This document shows positions 142-43,550 of a stretch of 43,550 nucleotides of DNA, one piece after another; the first letter of the stretch is position 1; the number at the start of each line of letters is the position of its first letter. Origin of the DNA: a virus (lineage: Duplodnaviria; Caudoviricetes); IMG/VR virus record IMGVR_UViG_3300010376_000018, positions 1-43,550 of that record. The stretch is one strand, 5' to 3'. A program made the translations under genes and the position numbers. The notes beneath the pieces were generated by a model. That model was not told where the DNA came from and made no database searches. It saw only the letters and a program-made list of their open reading frames with translations.

Positions 142-759
142 ATGAAAAAACTTCTGTATGCGCTGATTTGTTTGCTGGCCGGCACCGCAGGCGCGCACGC
201 GCAAGCGCAGGCCCAAGTCGTTGCCGTCTGCGGCTCGCCGCCGCCGCCCTATGCCACGGTTGGCGCGCTGTTGCCGCTGACCATGGATGTGACCGGCAAG
301 CTGTGCAACATCACCGGCACGCCCGGCCAGATTCCCGGCACCGCGACCAACGACAACGCCGCCGCCGGCAACGTCGGCGAGTTTATTTTTTCGACGGTGG
401 CCGGCGGCTCTGCCGTGCCGCTGACCACGGCGACCGGTGCCAACATGACCAGCGTGAGCCTGACGGCGGGCGATTGGGATTGTCAGGCCAACGTGGTGCG
501 GAGCTTCGGCGCAACCACGTCGATCACGACGGCGTCATCCGGCATTTCGACCACGTCGGCAACGCTCGGCTCGGCCGCCAACGCCACCACGCAATACGTC
601 ACGGCGGCGTTCGTGCCGAATGCGCAGATGTCCTGGCTGACGCCCATCGTGCGCGAAAGCTTGGCCGCGCCAACAACGATCTTTGCCGTGGCGCTCGACA
701 ACTTCACAGTGTCGACCGATAGCGTGTTTGGTACGCTGCGCTGCCGGAGGGTGCGTTAA
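142..759 (+). CDS. Signal-peptide-bearing virion fibre/decoration-type protein
   Basis: ATG 142 overlaps the TGA of the junction ORF (ATGA); N-terminus MKKLLYALICLLAGTAGAHA|Q is a Sec signal; C-terminal GTATNDNAAAGNVGE..SLTAGDWD..RRVR domain resembles phage fibre tip domains; 4 mature Cys. Confidence 0.7.
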   Translation: MKKLLYALICLLAGTAGAHAQAQAQVVAVCGSPPPPYATVGALLPLTMDVTGKLCNITGTPGQIPGTATNDNAAAGNVGEFIFSTVAGGSAVPLTTATGANMTSVSLTAGDWDCQANVVRSFGATTSITTASSGISTTSATLGSAANATTQYVTAAFVPNAQMSWLTPIVRESLAAPTTIFAVALDNFTVSTDSVFGTLRCRRVR

Positions 760-3053: not shown

Positions 3054-5204
3054 ATGGCCGAAGATCGCGACGACCGCGACGACGATGAGGGGCTTGAGCC
3101 GCCGCCGCAGACGGAGGAGCGCGACCGCGAACTGTCGGGCGATGAGGACATCGAAAAAGAATGCCTCAAGCTGTATGCCGACATCGAAAAGGGATTTTCA
3201 GATCAGTGGGACCGTGGCAACGCCCAAATGGATTATTGGGACATCTATAATTGTTTGCTCGGTCCCAAGCAATTTTACAGCGGCAACTCGAAAATCTTCC
3301 TGCCCATCGTTCACGACGCGATCAACGCGCGCAAGACGCGCTTTGTGAATCAGATATTTCCGCAGTCCGGCAAGCACATCGACGTGACGGCTTCCGAGGA
3401 CAAGCCGACCGCATTGATGTCGCTGCTTGAGTTTTACATCCGCAAGGCGCGGCTGCGCACCAATGCGATCCCGTCGCTGGTGCGCAACGGCGATGTCGAG
3501 GGCCAATACAACCTTTATATCCGCTGGGCCCGCAATCAGCGCCACGTCGCGATGCGGGTCAAGAAGCGGCACAAGGTTGATGATGTCGAAATCGACGGCG
3601 AGGAATACGATGACATCGTTGAGCAAACAATCGTGCATCAGTATCCGGTTGTCGAGGTCATCGCCGATGCCGACGTGCTGGTGCTGCCGCAAACCGCCAA
3701 CTCGATTGAGGAAGCCATCGACCAGGGCGGCAGCGTCACCATCGTCCGGCGCTGGTCAAAGACAAAAATCCGCCAATTGATCCGTGACGGTGAAATCGAC
3801 AAGGAGGCCGGACAAGAATTGTTGCGCACGATGAACCACAAGCAAAAACATCAGGTGCCCAACAAATCCAGCAATCTGACCCACGCCGCCGGCATCCAGA
3901 TCAGCGAAGGCAAGGCGATGGCGCTGGCCTATGAGACATGGACCACGCTGAAAGTCGAGGGCGAGCGCCGCATCTGCCGCGCCTTCTTTGGTGGCGAACC
4001 GCCGCTGCTTGGCTGCAAGCTTAATCCGTATTGGTGCGACAAAATCCCGTTGCTGTCCTCGCCGGTCGAAAAGGTGCAGGGCGCATTCAAGGGCATGTCC
4101 AAGCTCAAGTTTGTCGAAACGATCCAGTACGCCGCCAACGATGCGGTCAACGAGGGCATGGACTCGGCGGCTTATGCCTTGCTGCCGATCATCATGACCG
4201 ATCCTGAAAAAAACCCGCGCGTCGGTTCGATGGTGCTCAACGTCGCCGCTGTGTGGCAAACCTCGCCTAAAGACACGCAGTTCGCGCAATTCCCGCAACT
4301 GTGGAAAGAGGCGTTCGCCATCGTCGGATCGTGCAAGGATCAAATCTTTCAGACCATGGGCATCAACCCGGCGATGATGCCGCAACAGGCGACGGCGCCC
4401 GGCAAGAAACCGAACCAAGCGCAGATCGCCAACGAACAACAAGTCGACATTCTGACGACCGCCGACGCGGTGACCTCGCTTGAGGGCGAAATCCTCACGC
4501 CGATGCTGCAATGGTTCGTTTGGATGGACCATCAATTCCGCGACGATGACCTGTTGATCCCATCGTTCGGCGAGCTTGGCGTGCAGATTGCCATGGACCG
4601 CATTGAGCCGGTGCAGATGGATCGCCGCTTTGAGTTTCGCTGGTTCGGCGTCGAACAGGCGCGCAATCAGCAGCAAATGCAGATGCAGATGGCGGGCCTC
4701 AACATGCTCAAGGGCATCCCGCCGCAGATGTTTCCCGGCTATCGCATTCAGCTTGCGCCGGTCATCGCCAACTTTGTCGAAAACGTTTTTGGCCCGCGCC
4801 TCGCGCCGCGTGTGTTTGAGGACATCCGCAAGCAACTGACGCTTGAGGCCGACTTTGAGAACAAGATTCTCGCCGCCGGAATGCCGATGGAGGTTCATCC
4901 GCTGGACAACGATGCGGAGCATTTGCAGGCCCACATGCAAGAGTTTCAGCAGAACGGCGATCTCACCGGCTTCCTGCGCGAACACATGATGCGCCACCAA
5001 ATGCAGATGCAGCAAAAACAGCAGGCGCAGATGGCGGCGCAACAGGGCGCGATGCAGCAGCCGCCGCAGCCGCAAGGTGCCGGGGGGCCGGGACCGCGCC
5101 AAGGCGCGGCAACGCAGGCGCCACGTGGTAATCAGCTTCCGCCCGGCGCGGTGCCGCGCGATCAAATGGCGCTGGGCCCGCCACGCGTGCGAGGCGCGGC
5201 ATGA
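3054..5204 (+). CDS. Portal protein (podovirus type)
   Basis: 716 aa between TerL and scaffold/capsid; helical, Q/M/P-rich C-terminal tail. Confidence 0.85.
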   Translation: MAEDRDDRDDDEGLEPPPQTEERDRELSGDEDIEKECLKLYADIEKGFSDQWDRGNAQMDYWDIYNCLLGPKQFYSGNSKIFLPIVHDAINARKTRFVNQIFPQSGKHIDVTASEDKPTALMSLLEFYIRKARLRTNAIPSLVRNGDVEGQYNLYIRWARNQRHVAMRVKKRHKVDDVEIDGEEYDDIVEQTIVHQYPVVEVIADADVLVLPQTANSIEEAIDQGGSVTIVRRWSKTKIRQLIRDGEIDKEAGQELLRTMNHKQKHQVPNKSSNLTHAAGIQISEGKAMALAYETWTTLKVEGERRICRAFFGGEPPLLGCKLNPYWCDKIPLLSSPVEKVQGAFKGMSKLKFVETIQYAANDAVNEGMDSAAYALLPIIMTDPEKNPRVGSMVLNVAAVWQTSPKDTQFAQFPQLWKEAFAIVGSCKDQIFQTMGINPAMMPQQATAPGKKPNQAQIANEQQVDILTTADAVTSLEGEILTPMLQWFVWMDHQFRDDDLLIPSFGELGVQIAMDRIEPVQMDRRFEFRWFGVEQARNQQQMQMQMAGLNMLKGIPPQMFPGYRIQLAPVIANFVENVFGPRLAPRVFEDIRKQLTLEADFENKILAAGMPMEVHPLDNDAEHLQAHMQEFQQNGDLTGFLREHMMRHQMQMQQKQQAQMAAQQGAMQQPPQPQGAGGPGPRQGAATQAPRGNQLPPGAVPRDQMALGPPRVRGAA

Positions 5205-5671
5205 ACATCAATTTTCAGACGTGCCTGGAATATCTCATGTCGGACGGTTACACGCCGCCAGCGTGGGGCATCTGCCAAGCCGAATACGACGCATGGCGGC
5301 ACTTGTTTGGTTTGGCGCCGGCCGATGTCGGCGCCATGCCGCGCACCGAACTCATTGCCATCTATCGGCAACAGTATTGGGTTCCTGAGTGCGAAATACT
5401 GCCGACCGGCACCGACTATTTGGTGTTCGATCTCAAGGCCAAGGTGGGCCCGTATCTGGCGACCATGTGTGTGCAGGACGCGCTTGGCATCGACCGCGAT
5501 GGGCATTTTGGCATCATCACCATGGACAAACTGCGCTCCGCCGACGTGAAAAAACTCAACGACACGCTGTTGATCGCCAAGACCGATGTGCTGGGCGCCA
5601 GCGCGCCGAAAAATCTGCAACCAAAATCGGTGCATGATCGTGTGCTTGGAATGCTTGGGGTGCCGGCATGA
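5201..5671 (+). CDS. GH108-family lysozyme homolog, catalytic motif degenerate
   Basis: IYRQQYW..CEILPTGTDYLVFD..VQDALGIDRDGHFGIITM matches GH108; EGGY..DPGG motif replaced by SDGYTPPAWGI. Confidence 0.75.
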   Translation: MNINFQTCLEYLMSDGYTPPAWGICQAEYDAWRHLFGLAPADVGAMPRTELIAIYRQQYWVPECEILPTGTDYLVFDLKAKVGPYLATMCVQDALGIDRDGHFGIITMDKLRSADVKKLNDTLLIAKTDVLGASAPKNLQPKSVHDRVLGMLGVPA

Positions 5672-5982
5672 ATGGCGAACCAACAACATCGTGGCAGGAT
5701 ACGCAAAAGCTTCTGGCGTTCATTGTCGTTGTCGGTTTTCTCGGCGTGGTGTTCCTTTGGTTTTTTGATCCGCCGAAGGGCGATAACGCCGAACTGGCGG
5801 TGCTCAATACTTTGACGGGCGCGCTCGGCGGCTTCACCGGCATGATCGTGACCTACTATTTTGGGTCCTCGCGCTCGGCGGCCAACAAGGATGAAACCCT
5901 CAAGCAGATTGCGCTGGCTGCGCCACAAGCCGCAGCGGCACCGTCCGCGCCATCCGATCACCCGACGCCTCCCGCCGCATAG
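5668..5982 (+). CDS. Holin-like two-TM protein
   Basis: Two hydrophobic helices then YYFGSS motif; next to lysozyme homolog. Confidence 0.7.
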   Translation: MNGEPTTSWQDTQKLLAFIVVVGFLGVVFLWFFDPPKGDNAELAVLNTLTGALGGFTGMIVTYYFGSSRSAANKDETLKQIALAAPQAAAAPSAPSDHPTPPAA

Positions 5983-5991
5983 GAGTCCGAC

Positions 5992-6348
5992 ATGTTAGAG
6001 AACGAACGCACCGAAGCGGTCGCGCTCGCTGGCGCGCTACAAATCAAGGTCGATGATATTTTCGCCGAGAACGCGGAGCTTCGCGCCGAAACCGAGTCGT
6101 TGCGCGTCACCGCCGCGTTGCTGGTCGAGGAAACCACGACGCTGCGCAAGTCGTTGGAACAGGCGATCCGCCAGCGCGACGCCGCCCTGCGCCGCGCCGA
6201 TGAAGCGGAGGAAGCGGTGCGCAAGATCGCCGCGACCGCCAACGCGGTGCTGCGGCCGATCCAGCCGCCCAAGGATCGCTTGAGTGGCAAGCCGGCGCCG
6301 CCTGTGCTGCCGCACCCTACCATCCATAGTGTTGCGACCCCCCATTGA
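5992..6348 (+). CDS. Coiled-coil hypothetical protein
   Basis: AGGAG RBS; heptad-rich 118 aa. Confidence 0.75.
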   Translation: MLENERTEAVALAGALQIKVDDIFAENAELRAETESLRVTAALLVEETTTLRKSLEQAIRQRDAALRRADEAEEAVRKIAATANAVLRPIQPPKDRLSGKPAPPVLPHPTIHSVATPH

Positions 6349-7216: not shown

Positions 7217-8560
7217 ATGCCCACGAACGTCTCGACCAGCTTTTCGGCTGACATCGAATCCTATATCGCCGACAAGACCCTGCCGCTGACGCGCAAGCAG
7301 CTTGTCGTTTATCAGTTCGGCGACCCGCTGACCTTGCCGAAAGGGCGCGGCGTCACCTACACCGCCACCCGCTACAACCGTGTGCCGCTGCCCTATGCGC
7401 CGCTGTCCGAAGGCGTGCCGCCGGTTGGCGAGTTGATGACCATCCAGCAGGTCACGGCAACCGCGTTGCAGTGGGGTGACAAGATCACCATCACCGACGT
7501 TGCCGAACTCACCATCAAGCATCCGCTGTTCAAGAAAGCGATTGAGTTGATGGGGTTGCAAGTCGCGGAAACGCTTGAACGCAATACCTTCAACAACCTG
7601 ATGGGTTTCACGCAGGTCAACTACGTGAACTCGCGCGGTTCGCGCGGCGCGCTGGTGGCCGGCGACGTGATGAATACCCATGAACTCAATCGCAGCTATG
7701 CGATGCTGCAAAATATCGGCTCGCCCCGCTACATGGGCGATGAACTGACCGACACCAAGCTTGATGCCAATGCCGGCGGCCAGCGCGCGTCCTCAAACCC
7801 GCGTGCGATGCCGCACTATGTGGCGGTGCTGCACCCGTTCCCGGTCGCCGATCTTCGCGAAAATCAGGCGATCCAATATGCGTGGTCGCAGTCCGACATC
7901 AATCGCCTGTACAACTTTGAACTCGGCGAGTGGTCCGGCATCCGATTCACGTGGTCGAACATGTGTCCGACGTGGACCGGCATCGCGGCGCCGACTGCAA
8001 CATCGTCGGGCACTGGCGGCTCGCTGCCGACTGGCACCTATCAGGTCATCGTCACCGCGTCGGACACGCAGAACCAATACGAGGCGCTGGTGTCGCAGAC
8101 GCAGACCGGCTTGTCGGTCACCAGCCCGGCCAACATTTTGCTGACGACGCCATCGACGCAAGGCTACACCTACAATGTCTATATCGGCAACGGTCAGTCG
8201 CCGGTCAATCTTGGCGTGACCACTGCCGGCCCGACTTCGGGACCGTTGCAGGGCCAAGCCGTGCAGATTCCGCCCAACACCGCCATCACCATCAGCGGCA
8301 TTGGCGCGTTCCAGATTCCGCCGGCCGCGCCGGCAACCGGCGTGACCGTCTATCCGACGTTCATCTTTGGTCGCGGCTCTTACGGCCAAGTGATGCTCGA
8401 TGACGTGAAGTTCACCTATCTGAAAGACGCCGACAAATCCGATCCCCTGAATCAGTTGCGCGTGGTGGGCTGGAAAGCCTTTTACGGCACGCTGATTCAG
8501 AATGTGCAATTTGCCATGCGGATCGAAAGCACATCGGCGTTCAACGCCACCTTTGGGTAA
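7217..8560 (+). CDS. Major capsid protein, N4-gp56 family, with inserted beta-rich domain
   Basis: QFG..LPKGRG..LSEGVPP..QWG..ITD and DPLNQ..VGWKA motifs; T/G/P-rich insertion near 7980-8340. Confidence 0.9.
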   Translation: MPTNVSTSFSADIESYIADKTLPLTRKQLVVYQFGDPLTLPKGRGVTYTATRYNRVPLPYAPLSEGVPPVGELMTIQQVTATALQWGDKITITDVAELTIKHPLFKKAIELMGLQVAETLERNTFNNLMGFTQVNYVNSRGSRGALVAGDVMNTHELNRSYAMLQNIGSPRYMGDELTDTKLDANAGGQRASSNPRAMPHYVAVLHPFPVADLRENQAIQYAWSQSDINRLYNFELGEWSGIRFTWSNMCPTWTGIAAPTATSSGTGGSLPTGTYQVIVTASDTQNQYEALVSQTQTGLSVTSPANILLTTPSTQGYTYNVYIGNGQSPVNLGVTTAGPTSGPLQGQAVQIPPNTAITISGIGAFQIPPAAPATGVTVYPTFIFGRGSYGQVMLDDVKFTYLKDADKSDPLNQLRVVGWKAFYGTLIQNVQFAMRIESTSAFNATFG

Positions 8561-9683: not shown

Positions 9684-10117
9684 CCGACGAAAAAAACGGC
9701 GCAGCGCCGGCATTCGTGTTTCGTCTCGGCGGCCAAGTCGGGCCGAACAACACCATGGAAGTCACGTTCGGCGTGCCGGCCGACATGATGCCGGCCGACA
9801 TGGACAAATACATCGACAAGGTGCGCGCTCGGCTGGATCGGCAAAATGACATTCAGATTCTCGAAAGCGCGCACATCCAACTCCGCAACGCTGAAAAGCA
9901 GCTTGCCGACGAACGCGAACGGCGCGCGGTGGCGGAATCCTCGATGCGTGGTCATTGGGCGACATCCGGCCGCAAAGGCGACTTTAAGCCGACTGGATCG
10001 CAGGCGGCGGCGCTCGACAACCACGACCAAAACCTCAAGCGACTGATTGAGGATGTGATTCCGGGGTTCAAGGCGACCATCGCCGAACTTGAGCGAAAGA
10101 TTGCCGGGGATGCGTGA
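9680..10117 (+). CDS. Hypothetical coiled-coil protein
   Basis: ATGA-coupled start MTDEKNG. Confidence 0.75.
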   Translation: MTDEKNGAAPAFVFRLGGQVGPNNTMEVTFGVPADMMPADMDKYIDKVRARLDRQNDIQILESAHIQLRNAEKQLADERERRAVAESSMRGHWATSGRKGDFKPTGSQAAALDNHDQNLKRLIEDVIPGFKATIAELERKIAGDA

Positions 10118-10887
10118 TGCCGCTGACCAGCGCGCAAATCGTTTCGCAAGCGTGTCAGATAGCGCGGGTGCCGGGCTTCACGTCGCAGGCCGGGCAAATC
10201 CTCAATAAGACGCTTTCCGATCTCTGTCAGACTTACGACTTCGCGCTGGCGCGCAAGCAGTTCAATTTCACGCTGCCGACATCGCAGATCAACAGCGCCG
10301 GGCAGGCGTACATGAACCTGCCGCCGGACTATCTGCGCTGCATTCGCAACGGCAACTATTACGTCATCAGCGGCGTCCCTTACCCGATGATCCCGTGCGA
10401 TCAGGTCGAGGAGTTCAACATGTTGGTCGAACAGGCCGGCTTGTCGAACTTCCCGGTGTTTTTTGCGACCGATATGAGCCTGACCGGCGCGGCAAATTCG
10501 CAGACCGGATCGGGCGGCGCCTTGGTGCCCGTCATGCTGTTTTGGCAGGTGCCGTCCGGCGCCTATCAGGCGTTCCTCTATTACTTCTCGCAAATGCCCG
10601 ACATCGCCACGCCGGAAACCTCAAGCGTCATTCCGTGGTTTCCCAACCAAACTTATTTGGTCACGGAAACCGCCGGGCGGCTGATGCAGCTATCGGACGA
10701 TGAGCGCGCCGACGCGATGCTATCGGCCGATGAGGACGCGCACCCGCAAGGGTCCGCCGTGATCCTGCGAAAGTATCTGCAAATGAAAGACGACAAAGGC
10801 GACCGCGCCCAACAGGTGACGCTGGATCGCCGCCGCTTCGGCACATCGTTTGACCGGCTGCGCAACACCAAGAGCATCGGATGGTGA
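10117..10887 (+). CDS. Head-tail adaptor (tail tubular A-like)
   Basis: MPLTSAQIVSQACQIA..LNKTL..YMNLPPDY pattern and position. Confidence 0.7.
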   Translation: MPLTSAQIVSQACQIARVPGFTSQAGQILNKTLSDLCQTYDFALARKQFNFTLPTSQINSAGQAYMNLPPDYLRCIRNGNYYVISGVPYPMIPCDQVEEFNMLVEQAGLSNFPVFFATDMSLTGAANSQTGSGGALVPVMLFWQVPSGAYQAFLYYFSQMPDIATPETSSVIPWFPNQTYLVTETAGRLMQLSDDERADAMLSADEDAHPQGSAVILRKYLQMKDDKGDRAQQVTLDRRRFGTSFDRLRNTKSIGW

Positions 10888-10888
10888 C

Positions 10889-12847
10889 ATGAGAAAGCTT
10901 CTGGCCGCGCTGTTGCTGTCGCTGTTGCCGTCCGTCGCGCTGGCACAGACCGGCAGCGTCATGACGCAAAGCCAACTCAATACGCTCATTGGCACGACCG
11001 GTTGCACGCAACCGACGTGCTTGCTGCCGGACAATAACGTCGGCGCCATTACGCCGTTCGACGTGCGGCAAGTGTTGCTGAATATGAACGCGACCATGTT
11101 CGGCGGCGCGTCGCGCATTCTGATGCTGGCCGACACCACGTTCTATGTGAACCCGAACACAGTCGGTTCGGCGACGTGTGGCATCACGGGCGCGCTGACC
11201 TGCGGCCCCGGCAGCAATTCGGTGACGGCGATCCAGGCGGAAAATCCGGCAACGCCGTTCGCCACGTTGCAGGTCGCCATGGCGGTGATCTCCAACACGT
11301 TCGACTATGGCGGTCATACCCCGACCATCAACCTTGCGCACGGCACCGACCCCGGCGGCGCGCAATGTTCCTCGACCGGTGCCAACATCGGCCGCAACGG
11401 GCTGTTTATTAACGGCGATAACAACGCGCCCACGGCGGCGCAAATCCAAGCGGTCAATGGCGGCGCGGCCATCGTCGCCAGAGACAAATGCAGCTTGGTC
11501 CTGACCAGCCTCGAAATCGTTGACCAAGGCTCGGCGTTGATCGGCGTCGGCGTCGATCAACAAAGTGTCGTTGACCTTTCCGGCGTGTCGTTTGGTGCAT
11601 TCAACGCGTCCGCCGCGCAAGTGTTTTTGATGCAGAACGGCAGCATGAACGTTGCCGCGACCTGCGGCGCAACGCTGTTGGGTGGCGCCGGCAATTTCCT
11701 CAAGATGCAGGATAACGCGACCTTTGCGCTTTCGACCGGCACGCCGCCGACTCTGCCGCAAACTATCTGTGTTCCGCCGGCCACTGCCATCACCTATACG
11801 GCGACCGTCAATCTCAGTGGCAATGCCACTGTGACCGGCGCGAACGCCAGTTCCTTTACGCTTGGCGGCGGCGCCAGCGTTACCGGCGTGCGCGCCGCGC
11901 TGTCCGGCTCAAGCAACGTGCAGACGGCTGGCGCCGGCATCAACGCGGTGTTTCCCGGCAGCTTGCCGGCAACGCTTGTCGGCTTTGCCACGACCGACGT
12001 ACTGACTGACTATCTGACGACGGCGATCCCGCCGCAAAGCGGCGGCACCGGCACCAAGACGCAATTCACGCAAGGTTCGGTGCCGTTCGCGGGCGCGGGT
12101 GGCGTGTACAGCCAAGACAACGCCAATCTTTTTTATGACGCGACCAACCATCGGCTTGGCGTTGGCACGGCAGCACCGGTCACCGGGCTTGAAATTTTTG
12201 AGAACGCGACCCCGACCGAACGCGGGACCGGCATTGCCGGCGGTGTCTTGACCTTGCCCGATGCGACCAGCGGCGGCTGGACGGCAATTTCTTTTGGCCT
12301 GCAAGCCGTCACCGGTCACGTGCGCTTTGACGGCACCAACGCATCGCCGCTGGCGCTTGGTGCCAACGAGGAAATCGGCCGCCTGTCGTGGGGTGGCTGG
12401 ACCGGCAGCACCATCGCCAGCAACAAGGCGCGCGTTGCTTGCTTCACTGCGGAAGCGTTCACGCCTTCGGCTAACGGCACTTACTGCGATGTGGTAGCAA
12501 CCCTGCCGACCACAACCAACTTTTTCAGCGTGGCTCGTTTTCACGGCGACGGCCATTTTCTCAATATCTTTTCCGGGGCAGCGCCGACAATCAGCACATG
12601 CGGCACCACGCCATCGGTGTCCGGCAATGACAATGTGGGCAGCATCACAGCCGGTTCCGGCGCGCTGTCCTCTTGCGTCATGAACTTCGCCAAGCCGTGG
12701 GGCACCGCCCCGGTTTGTACCTTCTCAAGTCCGACCGCCGTCGCGGCGCCAACGGTCAATACCTCGACCACGCAACTGACCATCGGCGGGACCTCGCTGA
12801 CCAGCTTGACGCTCAACTACATCTGTCAATCGAACGGGGCGTCATAG
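10889..12847 (+). CDS. Tail fibre/spike with Sec signal peptide
   Basis: MRKLLAALLLSLLPSVALA|Q; LPDNNVGAITPFDVR anchor-like motif; beta-helix-like FYVNP..PFATLQ segment; NLFYDATNHRLGVGTAAP fibre motif; 14 Cys. Confidence 0.8.
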   Translation: MRKLLAALLLSLLPSVALAQTGSVMTQSQLNTLIGTTGCTQPTCLLPDNNVGAITPFDVRQVLLNMNATMFGGASRILMLADTTFYVNPNTVGSATCGITGALTCGPGSNSVTAIQAENPATPFATLQVAMAVISNTFDYGGHTPTINLAHGTDPGGAQCSSTGANIGRNGLFINGDNNAPTAAQIQAVNGGAAIVARDKCSLVLTSLEIVDQGSALIGVGVDQQSVVDLSGVSFGAFNASAAQVFLMQNGSMNVAATCGATLLGGAGNFLKMQDNATFALSTGTPPTLPQTICVPPATAITYTATVNLSGNATVTGANASSFTLGGGASVTGVRAALSGSSNVQTAGAGINAVFPGSLPATLVGFATTDVLTDYLTTAIPPQSGGTGTKTQFTQGSVPFAGAGGVYSQDNANLFYDATNHRLGVGTAAPVTGLEIFENATPTERGTGIAGGVLTLPDATSGGWTAISFGLQAVTGHVRFDGTNASPLALGANEEIGRLSWGGWTGSTIASNKARVACFTAEAFTPSANGTYCDVVATLPTTTNFFSVARFHGDGHFLNIFSGAAPTISTCGTTPSVSGNDNVGSITAGSGALSSCVMNFAKPWGTAPVCTFSSPTAVAAPTVNTSTTQLTIGGTSLTSLTLNYICQSNGAS

Positions 12848-14604
12848 TGCAACGCAATTCTAAACCCGTCACTTGGCGCGGTAAGGGCCTGTCCGATGCA
12901 CTCGACGCGTCGGATGCCTTCGATGGCTCGATGCTGTCGCTGCAAAACTTGATCCCCGACCCCTCGACGGCGCGGCTGTGGCAATGCCGCCCAGCGGCGC
13001 AAAAGATTTTCGACTTCTTTGGTGGCGCATTTTCCGGCGGCTTCTCTGGCGGCTTCTCTGGCGGCTTTGGCGGCGGCCCCACGACGCGCGGCCCGATCTC
13101 GGTCATGAAGCAAGTCGGCGGCATTGTGTACGGCATGGTTGCCAATCCATCGGGTGGCCTCGCCGGCTTTGACTCGCCGTTCGCCTTCAACCTTGTCACC
13201 AACACGCAAATCCCGGTGACCGGCACACAGAACGCCACGACGCTGCCGCAAACGCTGGCGGCGACGGGTGCGTGGGTGCCGCCGCAAATGGACGTGATCG
13301 GCACCAAGCTGATGGTGTGTCACCAAGGCTTTGTCGGCACCGGCGGCAACTTTGTTGGTTGGTTCGATATTTCGACACCGACTGCGCCGGTTTGGAATGC
13401 CGGCAACCTGACGCTTGGCGGCGCTGGCGGCTCGGTGTTCACCATTGCACCTATCGCGGTGAGGCAGTTTTTCAATCGCGCCTATTACATTCACAACGCC
13501 ATCAATGCGCCGGCTGTGCTGTTCTCTGACGCGCTCAATGCCACGATGTTCACGTCAACTGCGACCGTCGCCACCAACGTTCTGACCTTCAACGACAACG
13601 TGCCACTGACCGCACTCGGCGCGCTGCCGCTGTCGAACCAACTCGGCGGCATCATTCAATCGTTGATCGTGTTCAAAAACACAACGGTCATGTATCAGAT
13701 CACGGGCGATCCGATCTTTGGGTCGCCGACCAACGCACAAAATTTCAGCGGGCCGCCGCTGGCAATCAACACCCTCAACGTCGCGACCGGCACGCTGGCG
13801 CCAAACAGCATTCATGCGACGCCGAAGGGCCTCGCCTTCATGGCGCAGGATGGCGTCCGCATTATCGACTTCAACGCCAATGTCAGCGACCCCATCGGCC
13901 TCGATGGCAAAGGCATCTGTGTGCCGTTTATCTTCTCCGTGGTGCCGTCTCGGGTGTGTGCGGCGTGCAATGCCAACGTCATGCGGATCACCACGCAGAA
14001 CGGCAACCTGTCAAACAATCCGCAGCAAGAGTATTGGTTTGACTTCGGCCGTGGCATCTGGACCGGGCCGCACACGTCAACCGCGTCGCTGATTGTCCCC
14101 TATCAGCAGACGTTCATCATGCAGCCAACCGCTGTGCCGGGTCAGCTTTGGCAGTCCGACGTGTATCAATCGGCCACGTCGCAGTTTGTGGAAAACGGCA
14201 CAAATTTGCAATGGACGTTCGGATCAACGTTGCTGCCCGACACCGACGAAATCACCAACAACTGCATGACCGAATCGACGCTTGATTTGGCGCTGCCGCC
14301 GACCAGCCCACCCATCGTCATCAATGCGGCCGATCAAAATGGCTCGGTCATGAATCAGGTGTCGATCTCGCCGGTCACCACGTCGGCAGTCATTTGGGGC
14401 GGCTTTACATGGGGTTCGGCAACATGGGGCGGCGGTGCCGTTTCGGTGCTGGCGCCCTACCAACTGAAATGGACGCTGCCGATTGTATTCGCGCGCATGA
14501 CGGTGACGGCGACCGGGCAATCGGCCGCGACGTTGCGCGTCGGCGCGCTGCACATGCGCTATCAACCCTTGCGTCAACTCACCAACACACAGGCCGCAGC
14601 ATGA
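12847..14604 (+). CDS. Tail nozzle / tubular protein B-like
   Basis: GTG 12847 coupled to upstream TAG; ~585 aa beta-rich; WGGFTWGSATWG motif; FSGG repeats. Confidence 0.75.
   Translation: MQRNSKPVTWRGKGLSDALDASDAFDGSMLSLQNLIPDPSTARLWQCRPAAQKIFDFFGGAFSGGFSGGFSGGFGGGPTTRGPISVMKQVGGIVYGMVANPSGGLAGFDSPFAFNLVTNTQIPVTGTQNATTLPQTLAATGAWVPPQMDVIGTKLMVCHQGFVGTGGNFVGWFDISTPTAPVWNAGNLTLGGAGGSVFTIAPIAVRQFFNRAYYIHNAINAPAVLFSDALNATMFTSTATVATNVLTFNDNVPLTALGALPLSNQLGGIIQSLIVFKNTTVMYQITGDPIFGSPTNAQNFSGPPLAINTLNVATGTLAPNSIHATPKGLAFMAQDGVRIIDFNANVSDPIGLDGKGICVPFIFSVVPSRVCAACNANVMRITTQNGNLSNNPQQEYWFDFGRGIWTGPHTSTASLIVPYQQTFIMQPTAVPGQLWQSDVYQSATSQFVENGTNLQWTFGSTLLPDTDEITNNCMTESTLDLALPPTSPPIVINAADQNGSVMNQVSISPVTTSAVIWGGFTWGSATWGGGAVSVLAPYQLKWTLPIVFARMTVTATGQSAATLRVGALHMRYQPLRQLTNTQAAA
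13030..13077 (+). repeat. 12-bp coding tandem repeat (FSGG x3 + FGGG)
   Basis: TTTTCCGGCGGC TTCTCTGGCGGC TTCTCTGGCGGC TTTGGCGGCGGC. Confidence 0.9.
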
Positions 14605-15692
14605 AATACGTTCTCGCGTTGCTGCTATCGCTTCTCGCCTCACCCGCGCTCGCTGGGGTGTCGTGCGTGCTGCCATTCAACATTCAGAACGGCCAGCCCG
14701 CCGACGCTACGCAAGTCATGGCGAACTACAACGCGTTGGTGGCGTGCCTGGGCAACGCCGCTGCGGCCGGCGCTAATTCCGACATCACGTCGCTCAACGG
14801 CCTGACCACGCCGATCCCGAAGTCGGCCGGCGGCACGCCGGTTTATGTCGGCGGCACGTCGACCGGATCGGCCAATGCGCAGGTTGTTGGTTCGACTGTG
14901 CCGGGCTTTGTGCTGTCGCCGGGCAACATCGTCACCTTCTTTGCTGGATTCAGTAACACCGGAAATTTCACGCTTAACGTCGGCGGGACCGGTGTACTGA
15001 CGGTGTTCCGTCATACCCAACTTGGGCCGCTTAATTTCGTCGGCGGCGAAATCAACGCCAACGATCAGGTGATGGTACAATATGACGGCACGCAATTTCA
15101 GTGCCTGTCCTGCCATCGCGACATGGTTGGCGAGGTCATGGACTACACCGGCACGCCGCCCGCCGGCTGGCTGGTGATGGACGGTAGCTGTGTGTCGCAG
15201 ACAAGCTTTTCGGCGCTGTTCGCGGTGATTGGCACGAACTTTGGCTCTTGCGGCGCCGGATTGTTCGCGCTGCCGGACGGTCGCGGCAACGCCATGGTGG
15301 GGCTCGATAACCAGGGCAGCAATGGCAACGCGAACCGGCTGTCGATTTGCGCCGCCCAACATACGGTGTTGGGCGCGTTGTGCGGCGTGCAGCAACAAAC
15401 AATCTCGCAAGCGGAGTTGCCGGTTGTCACCATCCCGGCCACGGGCCTGACTGGCAGCTACAATCCGACCGTCGCGATCTGCAACACCCTGACCACGACC
15501 GGCTGTTCCAACGGCGACTCGAATTTGGTGGTCAGCGGCACCAGTCGCGGCACCGATCCGTGGTCGAACTACGTCGGCACTGGCGCCGGCTTGCAAGTCA
15601 CCATGGGCGGCAATGTCACGCTGCCCGGCGGCGCCGCCGGCTTGCCTACAATTCAACCCCTTCAATTTGTGTACAAAATCGTCAAGCTGTGA
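14601..15692 (+). CDS. Tail fibre with phage tail-collar domain and Sec signal peptide
   Basis: ATGA-coupled MKYVLALLLSLLASPALA|G; collar motif GEVMDY..PPAGWLVMDGS..FSALFAVIGT..FALPDGRG; 10 Cys. Confidence 0.85.
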   Translation: MKYVLALLLSLLASPALAGVSCVLPFNIQNGQPADATQVMANYNALVACLGNAAAAGANSDITSLNGLTTPIPKSAGGTPVYVGGTSTGSANAQVVGSTVPGFVLSPGNIVTFFAGFSNTGNFTLNVGGTGVLTVFRHTQLGPLNFVGGEINANDQVMVQYDGTQFQCLSCHRDMVGEVMDYTGTPPAGWLVMDGSCVSQTSFSALFAVIGTNFGSCGAGLFALPDGRGNAMVGLDNQGSNGNANRLSICAAQHTVLGALCGVQQQTISQAELPVVTIPATGLTGSYNPTVAICNTLTTTGCSNGDSNLVVSGTSRGTDPWSNYVGTGAGLQVTMGGNVTLPGGAAGLPTIQPLQFVYKIVKL

Positions 15693-16131: not shown

Positions 16132-16313
16132 GTAGCAATTCAGGCAAAGGCAACACGGCGTCACAAACAACCTTGCATCAAAGCGGAATGCGCAAGACCG
16201 CACCATCCGCCGATGACGCCTCGACACGATGCAAGGGCGGGAGCGTAAACAGTGAGTCAACCCGCAGCGGCACGGCGCAAACGCCCGGCACCATCGGCCC
16301 CCGCGAAGCTTGA
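16128..16313 (+). CDS. Small S/T/G-rich protein
   Basis: 61 aa, ATGA coupling. Confidence 0.6.
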   Translation: MSSNSGKGNTASQTTLHQSGMRKTAPSADDASTRCKGGSVNSESTRSGTAQTPGTIGPREA

Positions 16314-16776
16314 ACTTGTTCGGCCGACACTGACGGCGCAAGAGGAGCTATTTCCGCAAATAGCGCGCGAACTGCCGCCGCTGTTCCTCCGTCACTATGA
16401 GGAATTGTCAGACAAGGCGTTCCCGCTGGCGCCCGATTGGGACCGCTATTATGCGCTGGGCCTCACCGGCAATCTGAAAATCACCACAGCGCGGTTCGGC
16501 AACGTATTAGCCGGCTACATCTTCAACATCATCTGCCGCCATCTGCACTACGCCGAACCGCACGCCGACATGGAAATGTTTTGGCTCGATCCGGTGTATC
16601 GCGGCGGCCTGTTCGCGTTGCGCTGGTTTCGCTTCAACGATGACATGTTGCGCGAGGCCGGCGTTCGCAAGGTCAGCGCCGCGATCAAGACAGGTTATCG
16701 CGATGGCCGCGTCGAGTTGATCTTTCAGCGGCTCAAATACCGCAACGTCGAAAAAATCTATTCCAAGGTGCTGTGA
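16252..16776 (+). CDS. GNAT-fold acetyltransferase-like protein preceding ejection genes
   Basis: TAR..LAGY..HLHY..FWLDPVYRGG..YSKVL; usual position in podoviruses. Confidence 0.8.
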   Translation: MSQPAAARRKRPAPSAPAKLELVRPTLTAQEELFPQIARELPPLFLRHYEELSDKAFPLAPDWDRYYALGLTGNLKITTARFGNVLAGYIFNIICRHLHYAEPHADMEMFWLDPVYRGGLFALRWFRFNDDMLREAGVRKVSAAIKTGYRDGRVELIFQRLKYRNVEKIYSKVL

Positions 16777-19741: not shown

Positions 19742-21868
19742 ATGGCCGACGATGACATTGTGGTTACGGCCAAAGACGGCGCCGAAATTTCCTTCCCGAA
19801 GGACACGCCGCACGCTGACATTCTCAAGCAGATGCAGCAATACGAAATGCAGCATCGCCCGTCGCGCGGTCAGGAAGCGCGCTACGGCATCACCGATATT
19901 CCGTTTGAGATCGGCCGTGAGTATCAGTCGGCTTACCAGCCGATCAAACAATTCGGCGAATGGGCCCGTGGTGCCGGCGCCGAAACCGTGCCAAGTCCGC
20001 TATCCGATCCGCGCGGCTTTATCTCGCGCGTGCCGGAAATCGGGCGCGGCATCGGGCGCGGCGTCGAGGCGCTGGGTTCGGCCATGTACATGGGCAGCCT
20101 CTTGCCGCCGATTACGGGCGCGCTGAAATCGCTGTACGGCCATGAGGCCGAAGCGATCCTGCAAACGCCGGGCGGTTACGAACAAACAAAGCAGGACGTT
20201 GACAAGGCGATGCTGGCGATGAAGCCCGGCCCGCGTCCGGCTGTGGCAATGCCGGAACGTCCGCATTTCGGCGAATTTCGCGTGCCGACGCCGCAAGGCG
20301 AGGTCCCGCAGATCGTCGGCACCGCCGGCAAGGAACACATCGGAGCCTATCAGGATCAGACCAAAGATTTGCTTGAGGCCGCCAAGGGCGATGTGTCGAA
20401 ACGGCTCGATTATCTGTCGCAATTCCATGAAGGCCAGCGCGTCGCCACGACGCCATCGGAAGCCGGCGAAATTATTCAAAAGGGTGTGCAGCGCAAGGCG
20501 GCGGCGGCCCAGCAAGCCGCGACGGCGGCTTACGAGAATGCCAAGCTGTTCCCCGGCGAAATCAGTTCGACCGCTTTTGAGGACATGGGCGGCAACATCA
20601 AAAACGATCTCACCAACCCGACAAAGCGCGGACAACAGCCGGTCATCATCAACAACGATGCCGGCGACATGCCGGTTGCGACCCGCATGATCGGACACAT
20701 TGACGATAGCGTGTCGCGTTTGAAGATTCAGAACCTCGCCGATCCGCAGGCACCGCCCAAGCCGGTTACACCGGGCAGCGAGTCGACGCCGGGCCTGTAC
20801 TGGCCGCCCGGCACCAAGCCGAAACCGCCGCAGCAGATCGTCGGCGTCAGCCTCAAGGGCGTCGACCAGATGCGCAAGACTCTGGTCAGCATGAATGCCG
20901 ATGCGCAGGCAGCGCGCCACGTGCGGCCGGCGGACGCGCGGGCGACGCAAGCGATCCTCGACGCCTTCGATCAGCGGGTGCATCAGGCCGTCAACTCCGG
21001 ACTGTTCCGGGGCGATCCGCGCGCCGTACAGGCATGGAATAATGCGCGCAAGATGTGGGCGAAGTACCGCGGCACCTATTCGGGCGGCCGGCGCAACACG
21101 CCGGTTGGCAACATCGTTGAACAGATCATCGGCAACAAGACTGACGCCATGGCAACCGGGCACGATGTCGCCAACTTCGCCTATGGCAGCAACGACACGG
21201 CGATTGCGCGCGGCACCAACGTTGGCGTGCTCAAGCGGCTCAAGGGTATTTTCGGCGAACACTCGCACGAATGGGCGGCGACGCGGCAGGGACTTTTTGA
21301 GAAGTTGGTGACGCCGACACAGGGCGAATGGAATAAGCCGCGCAAAGTCGCCGAACGGATCGAACGATTTTTGGACGGCGACGGTCGCGAAATGGCGAAC
21401 GTGGTTTACACGCCGGAACAGCGCGACATGCTGCGGCGCTTCGCGCAACTGCATCGTCAAGTCGAAATCACGCGCGGCGGCCCGGATGAGGGTTTCGCCA
21501 AGGCGCTGACCGACAAGATCAGTCACTACATCGGCCTGATTATCGGCGGCGGCTTGGCACACGGCGGCCTGCACGGCGTCGCGCGCATCGTGCCCGTGGT
21601 CGCCGCCGGCCGCATGGCCTCCGTGCTACAGGGCGCGCAGGAAGCCAAGACCATCGCCGAAAAGCTACCGCTGGTGACGCAACGCATCGCCGACTGGCAG
21701 CGCGCCACCAAGCTGGCGCAAACCTACAACAAGGCGCGTTTCAAGGTGCAGGCGATGGCGGCGCAGGCGGCGGTCGGCCGCGCCATCAGCGAACTTGGCA
21801 TTCCCGGCGAAGCGCCGCCCGACAGCGAGGAGGAGGCCGCACCGCAGTACGGCGGCCCGCAACAGTAA
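19742..21868 (+). CDS. Ejection protein 3
   Basis: 708 aa helical protein with C-terminal G-rich hydrophobic segment. Confidence 0.7.
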   Translation: MADDDIVVTAKDGAEISFPKDTPHADILKQMQQYEMQHRPSRGQEARYGITDIPFEIGREYQSAYQPIKQFGEWARGAGAETVPSPLSDPRGFISRVPEIGRGIGRGVEALGSAMYMGSLLPPITGALKSLYGHEAEAILQTPGGYEQTKQDVDKAMLAMKPGPRPAVAMPERPHFGEFRVPTPQGEVPQIVGTAGKEHIGAYQDQTKDLLEAAKGDVSKRLDYLSQFHEGQRVATTPSEAGEIIQKGVQRKAAAAQQAATAAYENAKLFPGEISSTAFEDMGGNIKNDLTNPTKRGQQPVIINNDAGDMPVATRMIGHIDDSVSRLKIQNLADPQAPPKPVTPGSESTPGLYWPPGTKPKPPQQIVGVSLKGVDQMRKTLVSMNADAQAARHVRPADARATQAILDAFDQRVHQAVNSGLFRGDPRAVQAWNNARKMWAKYRGTYSGGRRNTPVGNIVEQIIGNKTDAMATGHDVANFAYGSNDTAIARGTNVGVLKRLKGIFGEHSHEWAATRQGLFEKLVTPTQGEWNKPRKVAERIERFLDGDGREMANVVYTPEQRDMLRRFAQLHRQVEITRGGPDEGFAKALTDKISHYIGLIIGGGLAHGGLHGVARIVPVVAAGRMASVLQGAQEAKTIAEKLPLVTQRIADWQRATKLAQTYNKARFKVQAMAAQAAVGRAISELGIPGEAPPDSEEEAAPQYGGPQQ

Positions 21869-41359: not shown

Positions 41360-41483
41360 ACAACAGCAACGCGTCATCGCCTCGATTGTCCGTTGTTTTG
41401 CTGACGGCGTGGTGGTCCTGCAATTCGGCCGCGCCTCCATCGTTTACGGGCGTAACCCTGCATCCATGGTGCATTGGGTATGA
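41352..41483 (+). CDS. 43-aa hypothetical protein
   Basis: MSEQQQRVIASIV...; stop overlaps TerL ATG (ATGA). Confidence 0.45.
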   Translation: MSEQQQRVIASIVRCFADGVVVLQFGRASIVYGRNPASMVHWV

Positions 41484-43516
41484 CGCCCGAAACCGAAGCC
41501 GCCATCCTCAAGCTCGGGCGCGACCGCTACTTGGCGCACCAAGCATTGTTTGGTCATCGCCATCCCGACAAGACGCCGCCGTTCCATCGCGACCTGATAG
41601 ACATGTGGCACAGCCGCGACCCGTATGGCTTGGCGATGGTGTTTCGCGAGGGCGGCAAATCGACCATCGCCGAAGAGTCGTTCGTGATCGGCGCCGGCTA
41701 TCAGCTATTCCACAACGCGATGATTATCGGCTCAACGGAGAAACGCGCCTGTGAGCGATTGCGAGCAATCAAACACGAAATAGAACACAACGAACTCGTT
41801 TCGGTCCTGTTCGGTGATCTCGTTGGCGACACATGGAATGAGGCGGAAGTCATCATGTCCAACGGCGTCCGCATCATCGCCCTTGGGCGAGGTCAGAGTC
41901 TACGTGGCACGAAACATTTACATTTCCGGCCCGACTTCTGCTTCTGTGACGACATTGAGGAGGAGGAGAACGTCAAGGACGCTGATGCGCGCGAGGAAAC
42001 ACTTTCTTGGTTCATGCGCGTCGTTGTGCCTGCCATGGATAAGTGGGGCCGCATCCGCGTCAACGCCACGCCGCTTGACCGCGAAGCCTTACCGTTCGCC
42101 TTGCAGCGCCGGCTGGGCTGGAAAACCCTGACCATTCCGATTGAGTATGTTGATGAACACGGCGACCGGCGGCCGACGTGGCCGTCGCGCTATCCGCTGG
42201 AATGGATCGACAAGAAGCGCCGCGACTTTGAGGCGGTGGGCAAGCTGGACGATTACATGAGGGAATACATGTGCGTCGCCGACGACCCGAAACGCAAATC
42301 GTTTACCGCCGACATGTTCAAGGTTGAGCCGCGCGTCCGCACGTGGCACCCGACTTATGCGTTCATCGACCCGGCGCGCACCACCAAACAAACATCGGCG
42401 CTGACTGGCTGGGCGGTGTGGTCATGGATCGGCAATCGCCTGATTGTTTGGGACGGCGGCGGCGGGCTGTGGAAGCCCGACGAAATCGTGTCGCATATTT
42501 TCAAGTTGGATGAAGATTACCGCTGCCTGAGCATCGGCGTCGAGGAAACCGGCCTCAACGAATTTCTGCTGCAACCGATCCGCCACGAAATGCTGCGCCG
42601 GGGCGCCCTGGTGCCGGTACGGCCGATGAATGCGCCGCGTGACAAGATGCGTTTCATCGAAGCATTGCAGCCGTTTTTTGTCGGCGGCGAAATCACCTTC
42701 GCCAAGGATTTGGCGGAGCTTCGCGCGCAATTCCTCAACTTCCCATCGGGCCGCATCGACGGCCCGAACGCGTTGGCCTACGCGCTGTTGATGCGCGCCG
42801 GTCAGGCGGTCTATGGCGAATTTTGCGGCGATCACGTCGCCATCGACGTGCGGCTGCGCCGCGACGAACCGGCTCACCTGTGTCTCGGCGCCCGCAACGG
42901 CGTCACCACGGCGGCGCTGTGCCAGTATTCGCACGGCACGTTGCGCATTGCCCGCGATTGGGTGCGCGAAGGCGAACCGACCGCGACCGTCGAGTCCATC
43001 GTCAAGGAGGCCCGCCTTGTCCAGCAAAATCTCAGGCTACTGGCTACCGGCGATCATTGGTCTGGCTTTAATCATCTTGGCCTGCGGGGTGCTGTGGCAA
43101 AGATACCGGACGAACTGCAACGCGGCGCCGCCCCCGAAATGGGGCGCAACGAACTTCGGGAGTTGCTTCGCCAGCGCACCGGCGACATCGCCCGGCTTCA
43201 AGTTTCAATAGACGCGCGCTGGGTCATCAACGGCTTTGCCGCCGGCTACTGCTACGGCATCGGCCGCAACGGCGCGCTGACCTCACAGCCGACCGATGAC
43301 CACTATCGCACGCTCATGGAGTCAATCGAAAGCCTCGCCGGCTTGCTCAAAGCCGGCCTCACCGACACCCCCAACTATGCGCGCACGGCCGGCGGGCAAC
43401 TGTACGTGTCGGCGCTGCCGGGGCAACGAGGAGTCACCGATGCGAAAGATAGCTTTCTTAATCCTGGCAACGTCACTGACGCTGGCGCTCTATCTGCTTT
43501 GCCAACCCGACACTAA
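41480..43516 (+). CDS. terL: Terminase large subunit with C-terminal extra domain
   Basis: Walker A REGGKST, LRG..RPD..DDIEE Walker B, NATP, nuclease FIDPA..EETG..DGPNAL. Confidence 0.92.
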   Translation: MTPETEAAILKLGRDRYLAHQALFGHRHPDKTPPFHRDLIDMWHSRDPYGLAMVFREGGKSTIAEESFVIGAGYQLFHNAMIIGSTEKRACERLRAIKHEIEHNELVSVLFGDLVGDTWNEAEVIMSNGVRIIALGRGQSLRGTKHLHFRPDFCFCDDIEEEENVKDADAREETLSWFMRVVVPAMDKWGRIRVNATPLDREALPFALQRRLGWKTLTIPIEYVDEHGDRRPTWPSRYPLEWIDKKRRDFEAVGKLDDYMREYMCVADDPKRKSFTADMFKVEPRVRTWHPTYAFIDPARTTKQTSALTGWAVWSWIGNRLIVWDGGGGLWKPDEIVSHIFKLDEDYRCLSIGVEETGLNEFLLQPIRHEMLRRGALVPVRPMNAPRDKMRFIEALQPFFVGGEITFAKDLAELRAQFLNFPSGRIDGPNALAYALLMRAGQAVYGEFCGDHVAIDVRLRRDEPAHLCLGARNGVTTAALCQYSHGTLRIARDWVREGEPTATVESIVKEARLVQQNLRLLATGDHWSGFNHLGLRGAVAKIPDELQRGAAPEMGRNELRELLRQRTGDIARLQVSIDARWVINGFAAGYCYGIGRNGALTSQPTDDHYRTLMESIESLAGLLKAGLTDTPNYARTAGGQLYVSALPGQRGVTDAKDSFLNPGNVTDAGALSALPTRH

Positions 43517-43550
43517 GGCGCAAGGCGGCGGCGCCCGCGTCATCGCCGCC
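43440..43550 (+). CDS. 63-aa secreted protein spanning the circular junction (continues to TGA at 143-145)
   Basis: GAGGAG RBS; MRKIAFLILATSLTLALYLLCQPDTKA|QGGGARVIAACGTPPATLAVGSLQIVFQNIHGQVCQ. Confidence 0.75.
   Translation, partial: MRKIAFLILATSLTLALYLLCQPDTKAQGGGARVIAA
43487..43550. repeat. Terminal direct repeat, right copy
   Basis: Identical to 1-64. Confidence 0.95.

Follow-up and report, generated by a model that had tools for sequence, protein, structure and literature searches.

Tail fibres with predicted Sec leaders and paired cysteines in an uncultured soil phage

By the accepted view, the particles of a tailed phage are complete before the cell lyses, having been built in the reducing cytoplasm; the known tail-collar fibres are made there without a leader. 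The phage proteins that are exported are of other kinds: the coat proteins of filamentous phages, spanins, which depend on the host Dsb enzymes, SAR endolysins, and Lom, Bor and Cor. To our knowledge, no tail fibre of a double-stranded DNA tailed phage is among them. Here we describe two tail fibre genes, fibre 1 and fibre 2, which start with predicted Sec leaders and encode paired cysteines. They lie in IMG/VR record IMGVR_UViG_3300010376_000018, a stretch of 43,550 nucleotides from an uncultured soil phage, which was analysed at its full length and is called the window below. The two fibres match no beta-barrel family (Pfam/PHROG) and have no lipobox, in which they differ from Lom, Bor and Cor.

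Two phages, Agrobacterium phage Milano (PMC10811340) and Mycobacterium phage Jabs (10.64898/2026.07.24.740622), have been described to carry disulfides in their virion proteins, among them the receptor-binding proteins. The accessible text on Milano mentions neither signal peptides nor the periplasm, and that on Jabs calls the origin of the disulfides open and proposes that they form during or after lysis. As far as described there, the networks of both phages span capsid, neck and tail, whereas in the window only leader-bearing proteins show the pairing, and the cysteine parity of the core proteins is random, a parity that cannot exclude bonds between chains. The cysteines of the P22 tailspike are reduced in the native trimer. 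In the accessible parts of PMC3556154, PMC3517404, PMC9144972, PMC13314943, PMC3357383 and 10.64898/2026.03.17.712343 the term signal peptide appears only in connection with references, spanins or pilin. No description of Sec-exported tail fibres was found in the full-text literature, with subscription papers and supplements largely outside the scope of the search. The parts of the locus are of known kinds; a split-compartment route for tailed phages was not found described.

Among solved tails, that of the Pseudomonas phage Pa223 with its hub gp59 and fibre gp60 (PDB 9nwi, 9nxk) offers the best match to the nozzle of the window and a collar-type fibre (Z 4.8, a weak match to fibre 2). The trimeric Pa223 fibre is described as attaching via one loop, with three Trp forming a pseudo-three-fold surface (bioRxiv 10.1101/2025.06.11.659172). 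Neither a signal nor a disulfide is mentioned in the accessible text of that paper, whose model of the fibre starts at residue 2, whereas the fibres of the window have leaders and cysteine pairs. Fibre 2 shares the PF07484 collar and the fold (Z 7-9) with T4 gp12, the gp37 tip and the fibres of the cyanophage A-1(L) (8kec) and Pa193 (9b45), and a GANSDI repeat with the fibres of SU10 (7z47) and PhiM1 (gp47; 8vbx), but differs from the known tail-collar fibres in carrying a leader. A likeness also exists in the cultured Burkholderia podovirus BcepC6B (NC_005887), where gp19 is annotated as a tail fibre and has a leader and four mature cysteines. BcepC6B differs in that it belongs to another phage group and that a leaderless fibre, gp18, adjoins gp19.

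Leaders and paired cysteines of the fibre genes

The adaptor, fibre 1, the nozzle and fibre 2 follow one another on the plus strand. The head-to-tail adaptor (10117..10887; PF24175, SU10 adaptor, E-value 1e-6) has no leader and ends in ...IGW. One base past its stop codon lies the ATG of fibre 1 (10889..12847; 652 amino acids), which opens with a predicted Sec leader of 19 residues (10889-10945) followed by a conserved N-terminal, putative docking domain (about 10946-11131); the mature chain holds 14 cysteines. The tail nozzle or hub (12847..14604; 585 amino acids), assigned from an AlphaFold2 model and a Foldseek search, has no leader. Its stop codon is overlapped by the ATG of fibre 2 (14601..15692; 363 amino acids), which comprises a predicted Sec leader of 18 residues (14601-14654), a putative docking domain (14655-14879), a tail-collar domain (15129-15293; PF07484, E-value 9e-14) and ten mature cysteines. 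An earlier note on this DNA had described both fibre genes as starting with Sec-like leaders at positions abutting or overlapping the upstream stops, and its coordinates, leaders and counts proved correct. Fibre 1 has no match in Pfam or PHROG, and its look-alikes and feature matches in the ESM Atlas all scored below 0.9 and are leads only. In the clade, fibre 1 is optional and fibre 2 near-universal.

Leaders were detected with a home-made n-h-c score, the claim being carried by conservation and true gene starts. Fibre 1, fibre 2 and a third protein encoded at 142-759 scored 4.5-4.8. For 17 other reference proteins, including portal, scaffold, capsid, adaptor, nozzle, terminase and three likely ejection proteins, the score was below 1.5 or none, in agreement with the earlier statement that portal, capsid, adaptor and nozzle lack a signal. 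An internal start that would skip the leader of fibre 1, ATG 10961, had been raised as an objection and was ruled out: no ribosome-binding site is seen by eye, and a Met stands at this position in 0/34 other rows of the fibre-1 alignment.

The best 120 fibre-2 homologs, among them that of the window, include 118 with a leader; one of the two misses has a leader that lacks a basic start, and the other is a truncated call. The sequence of the leader drifts, yet its basic, hydrophobic and A-x-A parts persist. The number of mature cysteines is even in every leader-bearing homolog (118/118; range 2-10). Nozzle homologs have no leader (0/120), and their cysteine parity is 72 even to 48 odd. In a set of 80 viral loci, near-duplicates included, the gene after the nozzle is leader-bearing in 68/74 cases, and no leader was found on core genes (0/10 portals, 0/51 capsids, 0/71 adaptors, 0/65 nozzles), whose even/odd cysteine counts are 24/27 for the capsid, 41/30 for the adaptor and 27/38 for the nozzle.

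The cysteine columns were examined in an alignment of 97 of the 120 fibre-2 homologs, most of the 23 excluded being long. Cysteine stands in both column 22 and column 49 in 87 rows, and there is no row with the first or the second only (87/0/0). The same holds for columns 197-217 (73/0/0), 168-171 (19/0/0) and 186-360 (10/0/0; this pair is absent from the window), while 294-302 are paired in 5 rows and 115-151 in 2 rows, and never single. Because the columns are gained and lost together, they follow the pattern expected of disulfides; the pairs of fibre 2 would be 22-49, 168-171, 197-217, 250-261 and 294-302. Signal peptide and cysteine pairs co-occur across the homologs, which the earlier note had named as a check.

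Fibres without a leader allow the same question to be put the other way round. Among the best 150 representatives (50% clusters; 12 repeat-only matches dropped, two truncated starts), the 103 full-length leader forms comprise 96 with an even, one with a zero and six with an odd number of cysteines, at 1.26 per 100 amino acids. The 20 leaderless forms comprise two even, eight zero and ten odd, at 0.27 per 100 amino acids or about a fifth of the leader density; these rows come without genomic context, and most of them resemble a leader subtype that likewise has no 22-49 pair. The Met of the leaderless forms is located at the predicted cut site, and cleavage of the leader would free the same N-terminus that the leaderless relatives make directly. 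Within the loci, 7/98 non-redundant fibre-2 domains are leaderless, and the 22-49 pair is present in 0/7 of them versus 68/91 of the leader forms, five long leaders having been reassigned to the leader class by hand and one HNH false match dropped. In L059, L088, L103 and L122 such leaderless genes without the pair lie inside well-supported clades of the nozzle tree (FastTree) that otherwise have leader and pair. For fibre 1, the count is even in 27/31 proteins with a leader, and the six without one, a small number, divide into two even, one zero and three odd. Since the leaderless forms are cysteine-poor and unpaired, leader and pairing are coupled, and a single gene slot seems able to take either the exported or the leaderless form.

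Nozzle loops, adaptor fusions and the docking of the fibres

The AlphaFold2 model of the nozzle has a predicted local distance difference test score (pLDDT) of 86. A Foldseek search with it ranks the Pa223 tail hub (9nwi; E-value 1e-14, template modelling score 0.61) first, followed by Pan3, PhiM1, VP1, T7 and P22, and the match to the Pa223 hub identifies the fold as a beta-propeller. Searches of PDB sequences with profiles of the nozzle, the adaptor and the fibre-1 N-domain gave nothing significant. One nozzle homolog, P0150, has a C-terminal extension of ~270 residues.

Two aromatic loops stand out in the nozzle gene, both on the plus strand. The Phe loop (residues 57-74; 13015..13068) is made up of F-S-x-G-F repeats, and the Trp loop (14395..14427) contains W517, W522 and W527, which are invariant in 62 aligned nozzles. 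The Trp motif is present in 138/144 full nozzle matches, in step with the near-universal fibre 2. By analogy to the Pa223 loop, the Trp loop is likely the dock of a fibre-2 trimer and the Phe loop likely that of a fibre-1 trimer. This likeness is an analogy only, because the Pa223 loop, as far as it is described, extends from a propeller blade and the two loops of the window lie elsewhere in the chain.

The presence of the Phe loop follows that of the fibre-1 gene. In 79 loci the strict motif and fibre 1 occur together in 27 and are both missing in 44, with the loop only in two and the fibre only in six. A relaxed three-aromatic pattern, picked after inspection of the data and with L017 replacing L016, gives 31 both, 3 loop only, 3 fibre only and 42 neither. 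The loop-only loci are three contigs of 2.8-7.8 kb, and whether fibre 1 is absent was judged within the retrieved DNA only; L008, L048 and L074 have fibre 1 without the loop. When the tree was made with the loop excluded, it yielded 14 independent pairs with a difference in the loop; fibre 1 is concordant in ~12 and opposite in 0 of them (sign test, p ~0.0005). The loop accompanies leader-bearing and leaderless fibre 1 alike. Fibre 1 usually adjoins the 5' end of the nozzle gene, so that linkage could explain the co-occurrence; linkage is countered only by L017, L046 and L065, where the loop persists although fibre 1 lies ~8 kb upstream. The best evidence that an exported fibre would end on the virion is that a nozzle made in the cytoplasm keeps this putative socket only with the fibre gene. 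Elsewhere in the complete genome, no leaderless fibre candidate was recognised by Pfam/PHROG annotation.

A complex of the nozzle with three fibre-2 N-domains was also predicted, no interface being given, and scored 0.55 against 0.03 for the best control; the contacts agree to at least 82% between runs and the pLDDT of the partner is at least 79. The mark set for such complexes was reached by 116/157 solved and 2/215 mismatched pairs, but scores of 0.60 or less comprise just 18 of these solved pairs and both mismatches; the job is moreover unlike the calibration set and might reach the mark through its resemblance to solved tails. The prediction lends weak support to docking of fibre 2 on the nozzle.

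A link between fibre 1 and the core of the tail is also given by gene fusions. In L003:7034-9469 and L050:3924-5747 (2/78 non-redundant adaptors) the adaptor runs through a hydrophobic A-x-A stretch into fibre 1, and the same fusion occurs in 10/11 longer adaptor homologs (P0241, P0242, P0244-P0251). Fibre 1 is thereby tied to a core tail protein, because the two form one chain. Judged by adaptor identity, those ten make up a single group, with L003 and L050 at 40-47% from the group and from each other; there are probably three fusion lineages. The linkers score as signals when the basic end of the adaptor is taken as the n-region, and the cysteines after the linker cut are even in number in 11/12 fusions. 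If the fusion chain is cut, the adaptor would keep a membrane tail; the Bradyrhizobium FbcH precursor is said to be such a cut chain. In L034, L083, L104, L128 and L152 (two of them in a stricter count) the adaptor ends in a hydrophobic tail of 17-25 residues, possibly a membrane tether or a relic of a fusion. Another adaptor homolog, P0243, has a repeated N-terminal extension of ~280 residues.

Further leader-bearing genes, lysis genes and genome setting

The protein encoded at 142..759 (plus strand; 205 amino acids) has, as previously noted, a predicted leader and four mature cysteines. It matches the tail fiber family phrog_11393 (E-value 9e-16) and is predicted to be exported and fibre-tip-like. 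A junction open reading frame of 63 amino acids (43440..43550, running on across the terminal repeat to 145; plus strand) starts with a leader or a membrane anchor, and its product could be membrane-anchored instead of exported. It has three cysteines in all. A mature count of two requires a cut after residue 27, and the home-made score places the cut at residue 16. The claim that the cysteines are always even in number therefore stands for fibre 1, fibre 2 and the 142-759 protein (14, 10 and 4), and for the junction reading frame it depends on the cut. Cysteines C38...C62 of the latter match C30...C55 of a module in the 142-759 protein (0/1000 shuffles as high), and similar leader-bearing modules are present in L020 and L045. 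To call these two products decoration proteins, as was done before, is unproven, the 142-759 protein matching a tail-fibre family. No docking site for the 142-759 protein was found; one possible site is a Thr/Gly-rich insertion of ~120 residues (~255-375 by eye) in the major capsid protein (7217-8560).

In many relatives, fibre 2 is followed by a member of another family of leader-bearing proteins with even cysteine numbers (L045:15145-16380, L015:6510-7109, L136:8772-9290 and ~25 more of the kind); this family is absent from the window and has no Pfam match. A leader-bearing protein of the tail region in L029 (2273-4021) carries a C-terminal S74 intramolecular chaperone domain, a hallmark of fibres, which would have to act in the periplasm.

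A lysis cassette (5201-6348) lies between portal and scaffold. It consists of a GH108 endolysin (5201-5671; PF05838) and a two-helix holin-like gene (5668-5982), called by sequence and position only, both on the plus strand, and a coiled-coil gene (5992-6348) without a membrane helix by eye. The window has no recognisable lipoprotein spanin, and a lipobox scan of it remained empty; a lipobox gene was present in 3/26 related lysis regions. This scarcity weakly fits an outer membrane that lingers at lysis, although spanins are often missed. In the Pfam/PHROG annotation of the window neither a Dsb or thioredoxin protein nor a phage protease was recognised; since no phage oxidase was found, the bonds would be formed by host Dsb.

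The window is a whole phage genome of 43,486 bases plus a 64-base terminal repeat, from a virus record with direct terminal repeats. It encodes terminase, endolysin, capsid, SU10-type adaptor, nozzle, GNAT, integrase, repressor and Cro-like genes; a likely portal was called by size and position, and three likely ejection proteins are encoded. The phage is complete and, given its integrase, repressor and Cro-like genes, a likely temperate podovirus. The GNAT gene (16252-16776) precedes the ejection genes, an ATP-grasp (GARS-like) gene kept in relatives (21868-23202) closes the late operon, and the large terminase (41474-43516) has a C-terminal extension of ~240 residues past its PHROG match. 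A search of 50,697 phage records gave no match for fibre 1, the nozzle or the 142-759 protein, and fibre 2 matched via its collar and repeat parts only; capsid and terminase are <30% identical to those of cultured phages. Among the runs listed as containing this DNA none was of RNA; a single DNA run, possibly of the source sample, covers both leader regions with zero differences and is no independent support.

The host would be an alphaproteobacterium with an outer membrane, likely of the Hyphomicrobiales. Matches of the integrase point to Methylobacterium and Tritonibacter, and the porin gene of a relative points to Rhizobium, Bradyrhizobium and Ochrobactrum. Host assignment via prophages yielded just three contigs of metagenome-assembled genomes with mixed labels and was not trusted.

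Proposed assembly route and its alternatives

We propose, with a probability of about 0.75, that the fibres are exported, acquire disulfides made by the host, and dock at lysis. Translation of the late operon, in which start-to-stop coupling ties the fibre genes to adaptor and nozzle, would yield the fibres together with these proteins. Sec would export the fibres, signal peptidase I would free the docking N-terminus, and host Dsb enzymes would oxidise the chains in the periplasm. There the trimers would wait while heads and tail cores assemble in the cytoplasm. Once the holin opens the inner membrane, the compartments would mix and the fibres plug onto the nozzle loops, a fibre-2 trimer taking the three-Trp loop and a fibre-1 trimer the three-Phe loop, with one aromatic residue per subunit. 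The most likely moment of docking would be the interval between the opening of the inner membrane and the rupture of the outer one, when concentrations would still be high. As a likely benefit, the fibres would be stabilised by disulfides for life in soil, with Sec and Dsb acting as host assembly factors. Export, oxidation and late joining had all been suggested in the earlier note; the comparisons support them through the gain and loss of pairs, the leaderless forms, the loops and the adaptor fusions.

Several points weigh against this proposal, in addition to the position of the loops in the chain and the limits given above with the loop counts and the predicted complex. Export, cleavage, disulfides and presence in the virion are all read from sequence, and a search of the 50,697 phage records yielded no cultured phage of the clade. 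The identity of the host rests on inference. The leader score also flags dozens of shadow-frame starts and is not specific alone, which is why we rely on gene-start position and conservation. The cysteine pairings are drawn from the co-occurrence of columns and not from sulfur distances, and odd counts do occur among leader forms (6/103, elsewhere 6/71 and 4/31). Finally, the scheme leaves unexplained how fibres and particles meet efficiently at lysis. A bolder version, which we regard as rather unlikely in its entirety, has assembly deliberately split across the inner membrane, with the tail core built on the cytoplasmic side and in some members tethered there by a signal anchor that the adaptor has kept, the outer membrane, still closed when the holin acts, serving as mixing chamber, the aromatic loops of the nozzle being modular sockets, and Sec, signal peptidase and Dsb being obligatory host factors of morphogenesis for a widespread clade.

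It is improbable that the proteins are exported but never reach the particle, having turned from fibres into lysogen adhesins, receptor decoys or factors of superinfection exclusion. Tail operons do contain genes for exported proteins, namely Lom, Bor and Cor. Moreover, plain outer-membrane beta-barrel genes (PF13505, leader-bearing) occur in the late region upstream of the head genes in L010:3104-3829, L020:2910-3620 and L021:4264-4941; the one that was searched has rhizobial porins as its nearest matches. In BcepC6B, the leader-bearing gp19 lies beside the leaderless fibre gp18 and is hence possibly dispensable. Such a role would suit the 142-759 protein and the junction reading frame better than the two fibres. 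It would, however, leave the phage with no recognisable fibre. The Phe loop of the nozzle tracks fibre 1, leaderless versions occupy the same slot beside closely related nozzles, and the genes follow those of adaptor and nozzle in start-to-stop coupling. Superinfection exclusion, which had been suggested earlier, finds no support: the coupling is to the late operon, and there is no sign, as far as gene layout shows, that a lysogen would express the genes.

We consider it very improbable that the leader is only a membrane tether or folding aid for fibres that stay in the cytoplasm and join normally, their cysteines being oxidised after lysis as proposed for virion proteins of the Milano and Jabs kind. 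Virion disulfides do exist in these two phages without a described export route, and the adaptor fusions can be read as holding the fibre on a cytoplasmic particle. However, the leaders keep their basic, hydrophobic and A-x-A parts despite drift, and no phage protease was recognised. The leaderless fibres, which are exposed to air after lysis as well, are cysteine-poor and unpaired, and the core proteins show random parity (capsid 24/27, nozzle 27/38). Least credence of all is given to a variant in which export proceeds as proposed but docking occurs only after the burst, so that bare particles are released and mature in the medium. In vitro, P22 tailspikes and T4 fibres can be added to particles that are already complete, and the sequence does not set the timing. 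Dilution would, on the other hand, be expected to slow docking, and the missing lipoprotein spanin in the window, together with the few lipobox genes in related lysis regions, speaks weakly for an outer membrane that lingers.

If export followed by docking at lysis is true, the infectious particle of a large clade of soil phages would be completed from parts made in two compartments. The export and disulfide enzymes of the host would then belong to phage morphogenesis, and lysis would itself be an assembly step. It would also be one possible answer to the question of where virion disulfides form. The proposal predicts that annotation mislabels such fibres as secreted proteins of the host type, and a name often borne by the matches is 'microcystin-dependent protein'. 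The natural pairs of leader-bearing and leaderless fibres, together with the co-variation of loop and fibre, name the exact residues of interest.

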